64,000 nucleotides of DNA, from contig JBDKRC010000027.1 in the NCBI GenBank assembly GCA_039683575.1, forward strand, positions 27,698-91,697. The letters are read 5' to 3'. Source of the DNA: Armatimonadia bacterium. Lineage in GTDB: Bacteria > Armatimonadota > Zipacnadia > Zipacnadales > UBA11051. The position numbers and the translations under genes were made by a program. The stretch's first letter is position 1. Every line of letters begins with the position of its first letter. Positions 3,585 to 33,148 of the stretch are shown piece after piece. The notes beneath the pieces were generated by a model. That model made no database searches, was not told where the DNA came from, and saw nothing but the letters and a program-made list of their open reading frames with translations.

Positions 3585-4790
3585 ATGTACCGTGTCCCCA
3601 GGTTATCTGCGCTACTTGCTTTGTGTTTGCTGCTGGCATTGATGCTAAGCGGCAGCGGGCCATCTGCGACTGCACCCGTGGTGCAGGGGTCCGCGGCTGT
3701 GGCGAGCGAGACGGCGGCTGGCGGGTCCAATGCCGGTGGTCTGCTACCGGTGCTGATCGGCTTTACAAAGGCACCCGGAGCGGCCGAACAGGGCCTTGTC
3801 AGGGGAGCCTCCGGCAAGATCAAGTACACCTACCACATCATCCCCGCAATCGCCGCACGCCTGCCTGCGCAGGCGGTCGCGGCGCTGGCGCACAATCCCA
3901 GGGTGGCCTACATCGAAGAGGATCCCATCGCCATGGCGAGCGCCGACACAGTGCCGTGGGGGATTACGCGGGTCAAGGCTGACCTGCTCTGGGCAGGCAA
4001 CACCGCCTCCGGCGTGAAGGTGGCGGTCATCGACACGGGCCTTGACTACCGCCACCCCGACCTGGCGCCGAACTACAAGGGCGGGTATGACTATGTCAAC
4101 CGGGATACTGACCCGATGGATGACAACGGGCACGGTACCCATTGCTCAGGGACGGTGGCTGCGGCGGTAGAGGGGACGAATGTTGTGGGCGCTGGCCCCG
4201 GCATCGCCCTGTATGGGGTAAAGGTGCTCAACTGGGCCGGTTCGGGCAGCTACAGTGACATCATTGCCGCGCTCCAGTGGTGCGTGACGAATGGCATGCA
4301 GGTGGCGTCAATGAGCTTCGGCGGCAGCAAGGGCTCGACTTCCCTGCAGAACGCCTGTGCCGCCGCGTATAGCGCCAACGTGGTGCTGGTTGCCGCGGCG
4401 GGTAACTCGGGCAAGGCTAACGGCAGGGGCAACACGGTTCAGTACCCGGCCAAGTATTCGAGTGTGATCGCCGTCGCCGCCATCGACAGCAACAACTTCC
4501 GCGCGTCATGGTCTTCATCTGGCGCTGAGGTTGAGATCGCCGCGCCTGGGGTGAGCATCGTGTCGGACAGGCTTGGTGGCGGACTTATCACCTACAGCGG
4601 CACGTCAATGGCGTGCCCGCATGTAGCGGGTTGCGCTGCACTGACCATTGCTTCGGGAGTTACAAAGGCAGCCACCGTGCGCAACCGACTGGACGCTACG
4701 GCACTGGACCTGGGCGCGGTGGGGCGAGACGCACTGTATGGGTATGGATTGGTGGACGCGCAGCGCGCGGTGCTGCAGGCTTCGCCGTAG
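3585..4790 (+). CDS. Secreted S8 subtilisin-like serine protease with I9-type propeptide
   Basis: Signal peptide; catalytic motifs VIDTG, HGTHCSG and SGTSMACPHVAG. Confidence 0.95.
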   Translation: MYRVPRLSALLALCLLLALMLSGSGPSATAPVVQGSAAVASETAAGGSNAGGLLPVLIGFTKAPGAAEQGLVRGASGKIKYTYHIIPAIAARLPAQAVAALAHNPRVAYIEEDPIAMASADTVPWGITRVKADLLWAGNTASGVKVAVIDTGLDYRHPDLAPNYKGGYDYVNRDTDPMDDNGHGTHCSGTVAAAVEGTNVVGAGPGIALYGVKVLNWAGSGSYSDIIAALQWCVTNGMQVASMSFGGSKGSTSLQNACAAAYSANVVLVAAAGNSGKANGRGNTVQYPAKYSSVIAVAAIDSNNFRASWSSSGAEVEIAAPGVSIVSDRLGGGLITYSGTSMACPHVAGCAALTIASGVTKAATVRNRLDATALDLGAVGRDALYGYGLVDAQRAVLQASP

Positions 4791-4893
4791 TGGGCTGAGG
4801 TTGGGGGAAAGCACTGAGCCATAGCGTGCCTGTGCCGGCGTGGAGCCGGCGCAGGCACTGTGGGCTATAGCGGGTAAGCTAGCAAGGGGTGGC

Positions 4894-5124
4894 ATGGAGA
4901 TGCGACTGTCCGACATAGAGGTGGTTAGCGCGGGGAACCATTGCGAGCTGCGCGCGCAGGTTACCTGCGATCCGACCGTTGCGGCCCACCCAAATGTCTC
5001 AGAGTGGTTCGCCGGCGGGAAGCCGTGTGAGCTATGGTATCGCTTCCCAAAGGAAATGCAGCAAAAGGCTATACGCGAGCGTTTGGCGACCGCTGAGCGC
5101 AGCCATGCGTTATCAGGCACCTAG
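4894..5124 (+). pseudogene. Short ORF (76 aa), probably a truncated gene fragment
   Basis: RBS AAGGGG then ATG. Reads protein-like up to ...LWYRFPKEMQ, then ends next to the repeat array. Confidence 0.35.
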
Positions 5125-5190
5125 CCGTGATGCCGCCGCCAGAATGGTTGCAGATCGTCGTCGGCGGTAGCCCAAGCAGCTTGCAGTATC

Positions 5191-5272
5191 CCTCAGATAT
5201 GCAACCCACCCCAAAGCCTCGGCAGCCGCTGCTCCACCGGCAGTAGCGTCACGCAGTGATCGTGCGGCTCGG
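5191..5272 (-). repeat. Copy C: 82-bp copy of the GH172 gene 3' end
   Basis: About 74/82 identical to 6636-6717 (manual count). Encodes EPHDHCVTLLPVEQRLPRLWGGLHI* versus EPHCHCVELLPVEKRLPRLWGGLHI*. Confidence 0.95.
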
Positions 5273-5620
5273 CTATTGCTGCTCTCTCGGCTGGGCACTC
5301 TTCCGCCGTGCTTCGCGGCGTAGCCTCAACTCCAACAACTCGATGCCGAGGGACATCCCCAGAGGCACGCCCCAGATTCCGCCGCTGACGGCGCCAAGCA
5401 GAAGAGCCTGATGGAATTCACGCGGAGAGAGACTACCGGGACTCGGCCCTTCGTAGACGATTGCCGGGAATAGGAACCCGACCATCACAAAGCCCACAAG
5501 CGCCCCTTTGAGCAGCGAGAGCACGTAACGTCGGCGCGGGTGCTTGAGCATGACAGATGCGACGCTCCATGCTGCCAGGAGAGCGCTTGGAGCCAATACA
5601 TTGATGTCGCCGCGTGTCAT
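5273..5620 (-). CDS. Small membrane protein (about 3 TM helices), cargo gene 2
   Basis: ATG 18 nt after the copy-B stop, with a purine-rich RBS. Three hydrophobic segments. Its stop codon directly abuts copy C. Confidence 0.7.
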   Translation of the reverse strand: MTRGDINVLAPSALLAAWSVASVMLKHPRRRYVLSLLKGALVGFVMVGFLFPAIVYEGPSPGSLSPREFHQALLLGAVSGGIWGVPLGMSLGIELLELRLRREARRKSAQPREQQ

Positions 5621-5636
5621 GGCGTCTTTCTCTTCC

Positions 5637-5930
5637 CCTCAGATATGCAACCCGCCCCACAGTCTCGGCAGCCGCTTCTCCACCGGCAGTAGCTCCACAC
5701 AGTGGCAGTGCGGCTCCGTCTGGTACCAGTACGCCGTGCTGCTGTAGTCGTGGAACATGTTGTTGGCATGGCCGTGCTCGATGGAAAAGAGCAGGCTCTC
5801 CTGGAACGGGATCGGGTCCTGAATGTGGTAGCGGTACTGGCTACGCTTGCCCGTGTAGTCGGCGTTGGTTTTGAAATGGTAGCCGTAGTACGGGGTGCAG
5901 AAGGTCTCCTTGAGGCGGTTGTAGTTCCAC
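5637..5930 (-). repeat. Copy B: 294-bp copy of the GH172 gene 3' end (start-less gene fragment)
   Basis: About 15 mismatches versus 6636-6929 (manual count, about 95%), no indels, only two amino-acid changes (H>R, S>F). Confidence 0.97.
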
Positions 5931-6032
5931 AACCGTCGCGAAATAAGTAGACTCACCCGAATATAGAGGTGGACAAGCCCCACCTGCTGCGTCGCCATCG
6001 ATCAGAACTCCGTGCATGTGAGGTAGACTGCT

Positions 6033-6617
6033 CTATGGCGTCTCACCCAGCGCCACAATCACCTTCGCATTCAGATCGTGCAAGTGGATGATGAACTTGA
6101 GGTACGTGCCAAGGATTATTACTAGTTGATTCCAGTGAATTTCGGAGAGGCTGCCCAGGGATATCCATTCGTCGTATTGCTGCTTGTACCTTACATTGGC
6201 ATGTGCTAGCCCGCCCCACATGAACGTGTCCAGAATCTGACCATGAGTGAGACAGGTATTCTCTGTGCGAAACGGTGACGGCGAAGCTAGATAGTCACTC
6301 AGGCATCGTTGCGTCTCAAAGAATGCCTGTCGAAGCTCCTGACGAATCAGTGCCTGGCTGTATGCTTCGGTCACCTTGTGCAAAGAACAGAGATCCGACT
6401 TATTCACGAACAACCTGAAAGTGAGTACAAACGCCTCGATAGATTCTTGGGGCGGGCCTCGCCTCTCGACGACGGCCGGTTCGCCTACCTTGGCGTGAGT
6501 CGACCAGCCGGTGCTCTCGAACAGCACCGTCCGACTGAAACTCGTTTGCGCCAGCTTCTCAGCCTTTTCGTTGAAAAGCCTTAGGGACTGGAGTATTTGT
6601 TCTCTAGTCACTTCCAC
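6033..6617 (-). CDS. Hypothetical protein (194 aa), lower GC, cargo gene 1
   Basis: RBS AAGGGGG then GTG at 6617, 20 nt after the GH172 stop. Reads MEVTREQILQSLRLFNEKAEKL...WGGLAHAN... Visibly more AT-rich than the flanks. Confidence 0.8.
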   Translation of the reverse strand: MEVTREQILQSLRLFNEKAEKLAQTSFSRTVLFESTGWSTHAKVGEPAVVERRGPPQESIEAFVLTFRLFVNKSDLCSLHKVTEAYSQALIRQELRQAFFETQRCLSDYLASPSPFRTENTCLTHGQILDTFMWGGLAHANVRYKQQYDEWISLGSLSEIHWNQLVIILGTYLKFIIHLHDLNAKVIVALGETP

Positions 6618-6637
6618 GTTCCCCCTTCGGTGTCGCC

Positions 6638-7660
6638 TCAGATATGCAACCCGCCCCAAAGCCTCGGCAGCCGCTTCTCCACCGGCAATAGCTCCACGCA
6701 GTGGCAGTGCGGCTCGGTCTGGTACCAGTACGCCGTGCTGCTGTAGTCGTGGGACATGTTGTTGGCATGGCCGTGCTCGATGGAAAAGAGCAGGCTCTCC
6801 TGGAACGGGATCGGGTCCTGGATGTGGTAGCGGTACTGGCTGTGCTTGCCTGTGTAGTCCGCGTTGGTCTTGAAGTGGTAGCCGTAATACGGGGTGCAGA
6901 AGGTCTCTTTGAGGCGGTTGTAGTTCCACGCGCCGCAGAAGTAGTCTTCGGTGCCCGTGCCGTGCAGCGACGGGGGCCACTTTTCGCCATCAATGAAGAA
7001 CATGTCGTCGCCCTCACCCCACCAGCCGGGAGTCTCGGCGTCGATGTCGAGGTGGCAGCCGACGTAGTGGCCGCGGCCCTTGGCCTCGAGAATCACGTAG
7101 TTCCCCGCCCCGCCGATGTTCCTCTCCTCGGCCAGTTGCTCAGCCTCGCACCATTCGCGGCGCCACTGGGCGTGGAAGCGGCCTACGTTGTCGGGGGCGG
7201 AGGTGTACTGCTCGTAGTCAATGTAGAAGTAGTAGACGGTGTCGCTGGTGTCGCACTCGCTGGTGACTTCCACGCGGGCGCCGTTAGCGAAGGGCATGGG
7301 GAAGTAGCAGTTGAAAGCGCGGTCCCACATGGAAAGGGCGGCGGAGGAGAAGTAGGTGGTGGCGGCGTGGCCGAGGCCGAAGAAGTCCCCGACGGGGCAC
7401 TCGACCGACGGGTTCTCCTCACCGTCCCAGTAGATGCGCAGTACGAGCTTGCGCAGGTAGTCACGCTCGCCGCAGGAGATTGTGGTCCAGAGATGGGTCA
7501 GGCACCCCGGGCCGGAGAGGTCGGCAAGGACACGGGTTTGGCCGGGCTCGACGACCCAATAGTCCTTGTTGCCGCCGGTCTGATCCCAGCTTGAGGAGCG
7601 CAGGGCGCGGTAGTCGCGGAGAGTGGCGAGGTCGCGGAGGGAGCTGCCGGGCATGATCAT
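6638..7660 (-). CDS. Glycoside hydrolase family 172 / DUF2961 protein
   Basis: Motifs SSWDQTGGNKD, PVGDFFG, WWGEGDD, HGTGTEDYF and IEHGHAN. Confidence 0.92.
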   Translation of the reverse strand: MIMPGSSLRDLATLRDYRALRSSSWDQTGGNKDYWVVEPGQTRVLADLSGPGCLTHLWTTISCGERDYLRKLVLRIYWDGEENPSVECPVGDFFGLGHAATTYFSSAALSMWDRAFNCYFPMPFANGARVEVTSECDTSDTVYYFYIDYEQYTSAPDNVGRFHAQWRREWCEAEQLAEERNIGGAGNYVILEAKGRGHYVGCHLDIDAETPGWWGEGDDMFFIDGEKWPPSLHGTGTEDYFCGAWNYNRLKETFCTPYYGYHFKTNADYTGKHSQYRYHIQDPIPFQESLLFSIEHGHANNMSHDYSSTAYWYQTEPHCHCVELLPVEKRLPRLWGGLHI

Positions 7661-7789: not shown

Positions 7790-8446
7790 CTACTCTTGCT
7801 CGATGCTCAGCAGCGAGTCGGCGGTGGCGCTGTCTATCGCCGCGGGCTTGAGCCACTTGGCGTGACCGTCGCAGAAGGCGTAGTTGCAGCCGTCGTTGTG
7901 GCGCTTGAAGCTGGCCCCGGTCGGGACCCAGCCGCGCGGGTTGGTCGATTCGCAGATGTCGTCCTCGTTGCCATCACTTTCCATGAGGAAGATGATGCTG
8001 GAGGAGTCCTCGAGGGACGCGAGCCACTGGCCGGTTGGCGGGGTCGGGGCGCCTGCGTCCTGGTGGGCGTCGTTGATGGCATAGCTGGCCTCGAGGCCGT
8101 CATCATCGTAGCGCCCGTCGAACTTGGTGCCGGTGGGACGATGGCTGGGGCAGAAGAAGATCTGGGCGTTCTTGCAGTACGGCATGAGGACGCCGCGCCA
8201 ACTGCCGTCGCCGGGATCGTTGCCAGTGCCCACGTAGGCGTAGTCCTCGGCTGGCAACGCCTCGTCGCAGTCCTGCGCGTAGCTGAGGGCGGCCGTCATG
8301 AGCTGCTTGATGTTCGAGAGGCAGCTTGACTGGCGGGCCTTTTCACGGGCCTTGGCGAAGACGGGAAAGAGGATGGAGGCCAGAATCGCGATAATCGCGA
8401 TTACCACCAGAAGCTCGATCAGCGTGAACCCGCGCCTGCTGCGCAT
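7790..8446 (-). CDS. DUF1559 family protein (prepilin N-terminus, H-X9-DG)
   Basis: [62 protein letters not shown] before 8446. Confidence 0.92.
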
Positions 8447-8516
8447 GATTGACGCCTCCTTTGGTTGCCCCAAACAGGGCGATTCGGGATATGTGCGACC
8501 CGCGGAAGCGGGGTTG

Positions 8517-8954
8517 CTACTCCAATTCGAAGCAATACGGCTCATGCTGCTCGTCAAGGGCGAGCAACTCCATGCACCTGGTCTTGAACTGGATGATCCC
8601 CATGTCGGGGTCGTCAGGACCGCTGTAGTACTTGTCCATCATTGGAATGCCCTTCCACAGCAGGCTGCGGAGTTCGGCCGTGTCTACGACCGTGGCGGTG
8701 CCGGAAAGAGTCGCGACTTGCCAGTCGTCTTGTTTAGAGAAGAGCATCTGGGCGTGATTGTTCGCACTAATCTGGTGCATTTTTCGCGAATCTTTGCCAC
8801 AGACCAGGTAGAAAGTCCAGGGGGCCTTGGGGTCTTCATAGAGTGCGCCCATCCACCGCATCCGAGGCTTGCCTTCGGAGTCCACGGTGGCCAGGACGTG
8901 TACGTTACTGACGGCTTGCATGACGCTACGGACGCGGTCAGGAAGGTCTGCCAT
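8517..8954 (-). CDS. Pyridoxamine 5'-phosphate oxidase-like FMN-binding split-barrel protein
   Basis: [24 protein letters not shown] and Y..GPDDPD pattern. Confidence 0.8.
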
Positions 8955-31987: not shown

Positions 31988-33148
31988 ATGAGCACCATCG
32001 AGGAGCTAACCATGCTATCCAACCTAACCACAATCCATAGCCGTCGCACCGGACGCTTCTCCTCCTGGGACACCTCGGGCCGCAATGCCGATGCCTGGAC
32101 GATTGCGCCCGGGGAGACGCGTGTTCTCGCCGACATCTCCGGCCCTGCCCAGATCACCCACCTGTGGATGACGCAGGCGAACCACTATCGCGAGTGCCTG
32201 CTGAAGATCACATGGGACAATGCCGCCTATCCCAGCGTGGTCGCGCCGCTCGGGGACTTCTTTGGCCTGGGGCATGGGCTGGTTAGCTCGTACCAGTCGG
32301 CGCTCTTCACGGCCTCGACGGCCAGGCCGAATCAGTTCAACCAGGGCTGCGCGCTGAACTGCTATGCGCCGATGCCCTTTCGCGAGCGGTGCGTGGTGGA
32401 GCTTATGAACGAAAGCGACCAGCCGCACCGGCAGTACTTCTATGTGGACTATGAGACGCTGGAGGAGGTGCCGGAGGACGCGGGGTACTTCCACGCGGAG
32501 TTCCGGCGCGCGAACCCCTTCGGCGGCTGGGGGCATGAGATTACCGTCAATACCCCGCTGGCCAACGCGGTCAATGTCGAGCGGCAGGCGTGGGCGAGCA
32601 ACTATGTCATCATGGAGAGTCGCGGGCGGGGGCATTACCTCGGGTGCAACCTGTCGGTGACGAACTTCCAGGGCACCTGGTGGGGCGAGGGGGATGACAT
32701 GATCTGGGTGGACGGGTACAAGTGGCCGCCGGACCTGCACGGGACGGGTAGCGAGGACTATCTCAACCAGGCGTGGGGGATGCAGGACAACGCGTTCATG
32801 CGCAACGGTTCTTCGATCTTCGAGGGCAACACGAAGGGCTATCAGACGAGCTATGTCTTCCATCTGGAAAACCCGGTGCGCTTCCAGAAGGAGATCAAGG
32901 TAACCATCGAGCACGGGCATGCCAACCATCTCGCCAACGAGATGAGCAGCGTGGGCTACTGGTACCTCGACAAGCCGGGGAAGGTAGCCGAACCGCCGCC
33001 GGTGGCGCAGAGATTGCCGGTGCTGCGCGACAACCAGGGCCACTGGCTGCACGACCCAGAGCGGCAGTGCCCCGGCAAGCCGGTGAAGCTCACTGACGAG
33101 ATGCGGCAGAATAAGAAAGAATGGAAGCGTCGCGCCAATCCCGCGTAG
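31988..33148 (+). CDS. Glycoside hydrolase family 172 / DUF2961 protein (second paralog)
   Basis: SSWDTSGRNAD, PLGDFFG, WWGEGDD, HGTGSEDY and IEHGHAN motifs. Confidence 0.92.
   Translation: MSTIEELTMLSNLTTIHSRRTGRFSSWDTSGRNADAWTIAPGETRVLADISGPAQITHLWMTQANHYRECLLKITWDNAAYPSVVAPLGDFFGLGHGLVSSYQSALFTASTARPNQFNQGCALNCYAPMPFRERCVVELMNESDQPHRQYFYVDYETLEEVPEDAGYFHAEFRRANPFGGWGHEITVNTPLANAVNVERQAWASNYVIMESRGRGHYLGCNLSVTNFQGTWWGEGDDMIWVDGYKWPPDLHGTGSEDYLNQAWGMQDNAFMRNGSSIFEGNTKGYQTSYVFHLENPVRFQKEIKVTIEHGHANHLANEMSSVGYWYLDKPGKVAEPPPVAQRLPVLRDNQGHWLHDPERQCPGKPVKLTDEMRQNKKEWKRRANPA

Follow-up and report, generated by a model that had tools for sequence, protein, structure and literature searches.

We analyzed a 64,000-nucleotide (nt) stretch of DNA (here, the window) from an Armatimonadia bacterium, with a focus on an array of repeated gene ends behind a gene of the glycoside hydrolase family GH172/DUF2961. 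The window belongs to contig JBDKRC010000027.1 (here, C27) of assembly GCA_039683575.1 (here, G000), a metagenome-assembled genome (MAG) of 6.2 Mb in 352 contigs derived from short reads. Coordinates are given in window numbering, and the array is read on the minus strand. It consists, in this order, of the intact GH172/DUF2961 gene, a first downstream gene (cargo 1), a 102-nt spacer, an orphan copy of the host gene's end (R2), a second gene (cargo 2), and a shorter orphan copy (R3). An earlier note, based on the sequence alone, had described such an array of three gene-end copies with two interposed genes, and its coordinates, spacings, and TGA-GG ends were borne out by our repeat search.

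Layout of the array

The host gene (6638..7660, minus strand) encodes 340 amino acids (aa) and ends with a TGA stop codon at 6640-6638. It is full-length, since it matches Pfam PF11175 over profile positions 1-235 of 235 (E value, 1.7e-88), and its orthologs are 88% identical at the aa level in two genomes of the same genus (G002 and G003) and 91% identical in the closest metagenome ortholog (L042). Repeat and codon comparison defines its active end, R1 (6636..6929, minus strand). Cargo 1 (6033..6617, minus strand) is an open reading frame (ORF) of 194 aa with a GTG start codon located 20 nt past the host TGA. The spacer (5931..6032, minus strand) extends from the cargo 1 stop codon to R2 and contains neither a hairpin nor attC cores. 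R2 (5637..5930, minus strand) is a 294-nt copy of the host's last 97 codons plus TGA-GG; it is 95% identical to R1, and its reading frame is intact over the 97 codons. Cargo 2 (5273..5620, minus strand), a hydrophobic ORF of 115 aa, has its ATG start codon 18 nt past the R2 TGA, and its stop codon abuts R3 exactly. R3 (5191..5272, minus strand) comprises 82 nt, that is, the last 26 codons, the TGA, and GG. Beyond it lies flank B (4791..5190), taken here as the resident sequence 3' of the oldest gene end, which in a metagenomic contig (from run X2; see below) is joined directly to a GH172 end.

The repeat search returned a direct repeat of 297 nt (5634-5930 versus 6633-6929; 95% identity; spacing, 999 nt) as well as the 82-nt family in three copies (5191-5272, 5637-5718, and 6636-6717), which share 87 to 90% identity at spacings of 446 and 999 nt. 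When the 297-nt sequence was used as a query against the whole assembly, the other copies were recovered with E values of 3.9e-131 and 3.6e-22, and no further copy was found; a GH172 paralog gave the sole additional match (63 nt, 75% identity). All three copies finish in ...CATATCTGAGG (TGA-GG), and beyond that point the sequences differ. The existence of the array is confirmed, and a chance origin is excluded.

Both cargo starts are preceded by a purine-rich stretch, which agrees with the earlier description of a ribosome-binding site for each cargo 18 to 20 nt after a stop codon. A search of the minus strand between the host gene and the cargos revealed neither a terminator-like nor a promoter-like site; therefore, read-through expression is plausible, and the cargos are probably read from the host-gene transcript.

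Divergence of the gene-end copies

R1 and R2 differ at 15 nt, which fall in 14 of the 97 codons; 12 of these changes are synonymous and 2 are replacements. The corresponding Nei-Gojobori estimates are 0.27 for synonymous (dS) and 0.017 for nonsynonymous (dN) divergence, in a slice that takes in one boundary codon. R3 differs from R1 at eight positions, including three replacement codons, and is both shorter and more altered than R2. The ends of R1, R2, and L042 are about equidistant from each other (93 to 95% and 92% identity). If R2 had decayed as a pseudogene, about 60% of the altered codons would be replacements, and the binomial probability of finding 2 or fewer among 14 is about 6e-4 (our own arithmetic). 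Because so few replacements are improbable under in-place decay after duplication, most of the divergence between R1 and R2 must have accrued while each was the end of a functional gene in a lineage of its own.

Since illegitimately joined tandem duplications occur often and leave a truncated second copy, one might envisage a local duplication of the gene end and the DNA downstream of it, after which the copies diverged and the genes were replaced without any import. We give this explanation hardly any credence: the three copies are followed by genes that have no relationship to each other, R2 has diverged in the manner of coding sequence, and in G002 it is the active end that looks foreign, not the orphan (see below).

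The host gene does not diverge evenly along its length, as its last approximately 470 nt are far less diverged between lineages than its first half. In 6 of 6 pairs, which are not independent of each other, dS is lower over the last 97 codons (0.22 to 0.49) than upstream (0.47 to 0.73). The lower dS of the GH172 end could reflect constraint or a repeated exchange of the end.

Occupancy of the slot in relatives and displacement of the resident end

A C-terminal pattern, TGGGGNGGNYTGCAYATCTGA, was used to collect related loci. Among 67 genomes of the order, it is present in three, all of the window's genus (with three occurrences in G000, two in G002, and one in G003), while the reversed pattern gave no matches in the same set. 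Eleven metagenome stretches match the pattern, of which four are orthologous loci and seven are unrelated. One candidate with two matches 300 nt apart (L040) encodes an unrelated Cys-rich repeat protein and was set aside.

The shared gene order is a GNAT_C gene, a variable slot, the GH172 gene, and a PNPOx-like gene. In the metagenome contig L039, the slot is empty, and the GH172 stop codon is followed after about 100 nt by the GNAT_C gene. In G002, it holds a peptidase S26 gene and a short orphan GH172 end (about 46 to 60 nt); in L043, it holds a related signal peptidase gene (63% aa identity) with no orphan, the peptidase being there a natural follower of GH172. A convergent GT87 gene occupies the slot in G003 and L037. 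L042 has a different sequence 3' of GH172, which opens with a short lipoprotein-like leader; a candidate degenerate orphan right after the L042 stop codon was rejected as not significant, with 94 of 500 shuffles scoring just as well. Two further states were found in Logan contigs of other samples. In a 367-nt contig of run X2, the GH172 end is joined directly to flank B, skipping from 5243 to 6689, and both cassettes are absent. In a 641-nt contig of run X4, the GH172 end is followed by a cargo-2-like sequence, with a spacing exactly as from R2 to cargo 2, and cargo 1 is absent. Since flank B of X2 is only 88% identical, the X2 form represents another lineage and not an excision product. The expectation that the cargo behind a constant stop codon would vary between relatives is thus supported by the states of L039, G002, G003/L037, L042, X2, and X4.

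The direction of the change can be read in G002. Its orphan end and about 45 nt past the stop codon align with the gene end and the intergenic sequence of the empty site in L039. Its active end differs from both the orphan and L039 and runs into a leader that resembles that of L043. Over the last 45 nt, the G002 orphan differs from L039 at two positions and from the G002 active end at four. Because the orphan and its flank match L039 while the active end resembles L043, the orphan is the resident end, and it was together with the cargo that the active end arrived. The insert as a whole consists of a single gene of housekeeping type (peptidase S26) with syntenic genes on both sides; therefore, there is no room for an integrase. 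This arrangement directly illustrates two statements of the earlier note, namely, that each addition restores the host ORF and that it leaves a displaced end behind. The proposed units of a gene 3' end plus one gene, added in succession, are likewise recognizable in the stack R1-cargo 1-R2-cargo 2-R3.

Recombinases and recombination sites

In a Pfam search of 54 ORF translations of the window (9 plus 45), no integrase, transposase, resolvase, or reverse transcriptase family was found, and the genome's 12 PF00589 matches are all on contigs other than C27. The claim that the window lacks a recombinase therefore stands. These data bear on site-specific accretion, in which the GH172 end would serve as the attB site for integrative islets that each carry a replacement end, with an integrase acting in trans or since deleted. 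Direct repeats of a gene 3' end together with a restored gene are the classic signature of such integration, 12 PF00589 recombinases are encoded elsewhere in the genome, and one cargo 1 homolog (L071; see below) sits between a tRNA-Ala gene and an orphan of its 3' half. However, apart from the lack of a recombinase in the window and of PF00589 on the contig, the orphans start at three different places (294, 82, and about 46 to 60 nt before the stop codon) with no single core, the G002 insert is a single signal peptidase gene that is an ordinary neighbor of GH172 in L043, and units of 446 and 999 nt are far below the size of known integrative elements. We consider this explanation unlikely.

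attC sites are imperfect palindromes with RYYYAAC...GTTRRRY cores that follow each cassette of an integron. A combined test (core regular expression, pairing, and fold energy) identified no attC-like site in 5101-6700 on either strand; with the same core consensus, the test detected sites in 3 of 40 cargo 1 homolog loci and in none of 40 shuffled controls. The final 82 nt of the host gene and the 102-nt spacer fold no better than shuffles on both strands (z, +0.41 to +1.20; spacer, +0.8 and +1.2). With these z values and no RYYYAAC...GTTRRRY site, a function of the repeats as attC sites or hairpins is rejected. The integron-like behavior suggested in the earlier note was not substantiated, as the repeats show neither an attC-like fold nor a core at a fixed position.

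Parallel scars at other genes of the genome

A self-comparison of the genome yielded 312 direct-repeat pairs within 6 kb. These were filtered for the end of a long ORF with a truncated downstream copy that ends at the same stop codon, and seven rows were kept: two represent the GH172 array, two are true parallels, and three are on contigs C252, C206, and C276. The C252 row was dropped because it consists of two tandem paralogs, one of them cut by the contig end, and the repeats of C206 and C276, which are short and lie on small contigs, were left out of the inspected parallels. Only two further scars among the 312 pairs stood up to inspection in this genome-wide scan, a check that the earlier note had proposed.

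The first parallel is at thrS (contig C26, 18216-21594; locus L084), whose product contains the TGS, SAD, class II core, and anticodon-binding domains (Pfam). Its orphan end of 130 nt (87% identity) is located 1.4 kb downstream, beyond two ORFs of 243 and 154 aa with no Pfam family. The orphan retains a TAA stop codon, as in G002, along with a hairpin and a T-run, whereas the active gene ends with TAG. What follows thrS shows no conservation in G001-G003. The second parallel is at the gene of a 1,072-aa Eco57I-type methylase (contig C39, 22066-28191; locus L085); this locus was not found in G001-G003. The methylase orphan end (115 to 129 nt, with a 14-nt deletion) lies 2.9 kb downstream, and the interval contains two TIR-domain genes with DUF5679 tails and a 277-aa ORF. 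This cargo looks like a defense-type one inserted by the same route. In both parallels, the homology ends at the stop codon, and both orphans carry indels.

Given that X2 (GH172-flank B) and X4 (GH172-cargo-2-like) forms exist as such in other samples, strain variants of the types GH172-cargo 1, GH172-cargo 2, and GH172-flank B could have been strung into one contig by the assembler. We judge such an artifact to be very improbable. At the spacer/R2 and cargo 2/R3 joints, there is no k-mer in common with the corresponding position of the full gene, and a de Bruijn graph therefore has no path for a false join. Moreover, the independent genome G002 has the same architecture, and the thrS and methylase orphans, with their indels, cannot be strain alleles.

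Properties of the cargos

Cargo 1 is a real gene: 40 homologs of about 190 to 200 aa were collected, all unannotated except for one weak match carrying PF13358, and the closest of them share 52 to 65% identity with it. Its GC content is 52%, versus 63% for the window, and its relatives are spread over many other phyla. No Pfam, NCBIfam, or PADLOC family matches it, and a profile search of the PDB gave a best E value of only 0.79. The AlphaFold2 model has a pLDDT of 94.2. Foldseek returned no PDB match for this model at an E value of ≤0.001, and the ESM Atlas gave no usable match. With VIA-align, the best Z score was 8.4, to 3jrt (an integron cassette protein), followed by HEPN toxins with 7.7 and 6.5, a range that is common for helical proteins. 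In 3 of the 40 homolog loci (L058, L067, and L083), the gene is flanked by attC-type repeats in arrays according to the strict test, and two further attC-type loci (L046 and L057) were recognized by repeat similarity. These repeats (GCCTAAC...GTTAGGC) occur in Methylobacter, Gemmatimonadales, Bacteroidota, Clostridia, and Alteromonas genomes. The cargo 1 family is a group of integron-cassette proteins that lacks annotation but has a confidently predicted fold; cargo 1 itself is thus a typical mobilome passenger now fixed behind GH172. A further homolog, in a Solirubrobacterales MAG (L071:4297-6600), lies in a 2.2-kb islet that extends from a tRNA-Ala gene to a 46-nt orphan of the 3' half of that gene.

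A search of the protein collection with cargo 2 matched only cargo 2 itself among 32 candidates. It has no Pfam or PADLOC family, and its NCBIfam matches are noise. The ORF and the cargo-2-like stretch in X4 suggest that cargo 2 is a gene.

The content and position of the cargos raise the question of a dedicated integrase-free cassette system, in which the end copies would be portable homology arms, units would be regularly excised as circles, reinserted, reordered, and exchanged, and the arrangement would be under selection. Such a system would account for single whole genes in the sense orientation 18 to 20 nt past a stop codon, each with a ribosome-binding-like stretch, and for the stacking of two units. 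With 294 nt and 95% identity, the repeat has a sufficient length for RecA-type exchange, and the cargo 1 family rides in integron cassettes. X6 contigs cross the spacer/R2 joint, but only by 25 and 29 nt, which is below the 31-nt rule. On the other hand, neither circles nor excision junctions nor reordered arrays were observed, and the sole cassette-free form (X2) is of another lineage, so that the excision and reordering postulated in the earlier note did not find support. Only three such loci exist in 6.2 Mb, and the thrS and methylase orphans carry indels, hence they are decaying rather than maintained. All in all, we regard a dedicated system as improbable.

A model of successive end displacement

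We think it probable that two additive recombination events, one after the other, took place at the GH172 3' end and left the array as a stratified scar. In this reading, the locus is a scar of recombination-driven gene gain and not a new integron-like machine. According to this model, DNA of a diverged relative would enter the cell, carrying the relative's GH172 end and whatever follows there, and would pair with the resident gene via the homologous end. Through this exchange, the host gene would receive a different, functional 3' end whose stop codon is immediately followed by the foreign gene. On its far side, the fragment would be joined upstream of the resident stop codon, so that the resident end is pushed downstream as an orphan instead of being replaced. 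This far-end joint could arise in three ways: (i) by illegitimate joining, as in homology-facilitated illegitimate recombination (HFIR); (ii) by Campbell-type insertion of a circularized fragment; or (iii) by another homologous exchange, provided that the arrangement gene end-cargo-orphan end was present in the donor beforehand. Flank B would then be the oldest part; cargo 2 would have come next, leaving R3, and cargo 1 last, leaving R2. Host recombination would suffice, with no need for an element-encoded enzyme. Of the single-crossover accretion in the earlier note, the additive recombination is retained, while integration of a circle by a single crossover becomes only one of several routes with an equal product. 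We infer the route of DNA entry, the type of the right-hand joint, and co-transcription.

The data agree with HFIR, or with additive integration in general, in that donor and recipient share one homologous anchor and the donor is diverged, as seen in the coding-type divergence between R1 and R2 and in the G002 active end compared with its resident-type orphan. The orphans vary in length before the stop codon, and the homology always stops at that codon.

Several points weigh against successive end displacement. The donor sequence is absent, the joints are unreadable for microhomology, the three routes are indistinguishable, and the L043 peptidase is only 63% identical. Competence or another route of DNA entry into the organism would be required. 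The presence of single whole sense genes, and a cargo 2 stop codon that abuts R3, are odd under this model and would be explained more neatly by a dedicated cassette mechanism. Because its GC content is 52% and its relatives are found only in other phyla, cargo 1 cannot have begun as a native neighbor of GH172, and the model must assume one or more prior, unexplained insertions directly after the stop codon. Short reads underlie the MAG, and a search for runs with the source reads found none, the best sharing 0.18 of the sampled words. Finally, a sliding window along the host gene shows no step at the 294-nt boundary, and the low dS gives no proof of repeated end replacement.

Comparison with known systems

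The closest bacterial counterparts are the rhs, cdiA-CT/cdiI, and type VI secretion system (T6SS) loci. For T6SS effector-immunity arrays, HFIR is the proposed route in the account of Kirchberger et al. 2017 (PMC5361080), which also cites it for the "C-terminal displacement" of rhs and notes both a parallel with and a difference from integrons. Jackson et al. 2009 and Poole et al. 2011 are cited there for displacement and orphan arrays. The systems resemble the GH172 array in that incoming DNA is anchored in a conserved part of the gene and a new end takes over, while older ends and their companion genes are stacked downstream as orphans with no integrase. The differences are as follows: (i) the hosts here are not toxins but a glycoside hydrolase (DUF2961/GH172 over its full length), thrS, and a methylase; (ii) the repeat here is a true ORF end including the stop codon, and the copies encode a nearly identical C terminus (two and three aa changes); and (iii) the variable part here is a separate gene past the stop codon, whereas there it is a fused toxin tip with an immunity gene.

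A eukaryotic counterpart is provided by the WHO elements at FBA1 of Torulaspora/Lachancea yeasts, which, according to Coughlan et al. 2020 (PMC7282813), are driven by a cargo-encoded endonuclease. There, too, cargos alternate with 3'-end fragments of the housekeeping gene that they follow; with each insertion, the gene gains a new 3' end and the old one moves downstream, the newest unit is nearest to the gene, and a downstream fragment can act as a second homology arm. In WHO elements, however, the cargo cuts the target, and many fragments start near one position, taken by the authors as the likely cleavage site. The cargos of our array show no nuclease family match in Pfam, NCBIfam, or PADLOC, the G002 cargo is a signal peptidase, and the fragment starts vary. 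Across all three loci of the genome and G002, the displaced ends have no common start (294, 82, and about 46 to 60 nt at GH172; approximately 130 nt at thrS; 115 to 129 nt at the methylase gene).

Three other comparisons concern mobile DNA more generally. Phage 21 and e14 at icd, ICESt1/3 with their cis-mobilizable elements (CIMEs) at fda, and the composite staphylococcal cassette chromosome (SCC) elements at rlmH are integrase-driven cases of 3'-end integration with a replacement end and tandem accretion. As in our array, the element-borne end restores the gene, the repeats correspond to the gene end, and some units lack an integrase of their own; unlike these elements, the array has no recombinase on its contig, no fixed core, and one-gene units of 0.45 to 1 kb. 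Integron arrays share with it the stacking of promoterless single genes behind one entry point, newest first, and the cargo 1 family, which occurs in attC-bounded arrays (3 of 40 strictly and 2 more by repeat similarity); in contrast to integrons, no intI was found, and the repeats are coding sequence of the neighboring gene, with no fold and no R''/R' cores. The minimal mobile elements of Neisseria also represent a slot between conserved genes (here, GH172 and GNAT_C) with whole genes that vary between lineages and are exchanged by homologous recombination. In those elements, replacement through two flanks leaves no duplicated end, whereas insertion here is additive and leaves orphans.

The mechanism is of a known kind, and the pattern is not unprecedented, as it matches rhs/CDI (contact-dependent growth inhibition)/T6SS displacement and WHO/FBA1. 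Within the literature collection searched, no description of such arrays at GH172/DUF2961 or at bacterial housekeeping genes was found. New here are the ordinary nontoxin genes, the separate downstream gene as the variable part, the double stacking, and an orphan with an intact 97-codon frame.

If successive end displacement is correct, the locus is a dated, readable record of single-gene addition with no mobile-element enzyme, in a lineage known only from metagenomes, and from the orphan ends one can read in which order the additions came and that diverged relatives were their donors. A mechanism proposed for toxin loci would be seen here at a sugar hydrolase, a tRNA synthetase, and a restriction-modification methylase (with TIR genes among the cargo), and a gene family of the integron-cassette pool would have ended up fixed behind an ordinary gene. 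This may be a general, undercounted route of gene gain that a simple genome scan can detect. A much bolder proposal, which we hold to be rather unlikely, is that gene-end copies are the portable homology arms of a widespread bacterial integrase-free cassette exchange with expression from the host gene. If it were true, units of gene end, cargo, and orphan end would let ordinary recombination move, stack, delete, and reinsert promoterless genes across related lineages; the cargo would include genes of the integron pool, and the exchange would be a recombination-only counterpart of the integron.

Neighboring genes

The paralogous GH172/DUF2961 gene of the window (32012-33025, plus strand; 45% identical) is located among carbohydrate-active genes (GH4, GH20, GH123-like, and CBM9), and no orphan end was found beside it. 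Flank B carries a convergent 94-aa ORF (4840-5124, plus strand). Together with a subtilase S8 gene, this ORF (3585-5124 for both, plus strand) is convergent with GH172 and occupies the slot between flank B and the GNAT_C gene. Both are absent in G002 and L039, in which the GNAT_C gene directly follows GH172 or its orphan. On the opposite side of GH172, a DUF1559/N-methyl (type IV pilin-like) gene (7790-8557, minus strand) lies between GH172 and the PNPOx-like gene. It represents a second indel, with no flanking repeat of at least 20 nt, and is missing from this position in G002, G003, L037, and L042, where only about 100 nt separate GH172 from the PNPOx-like gene.

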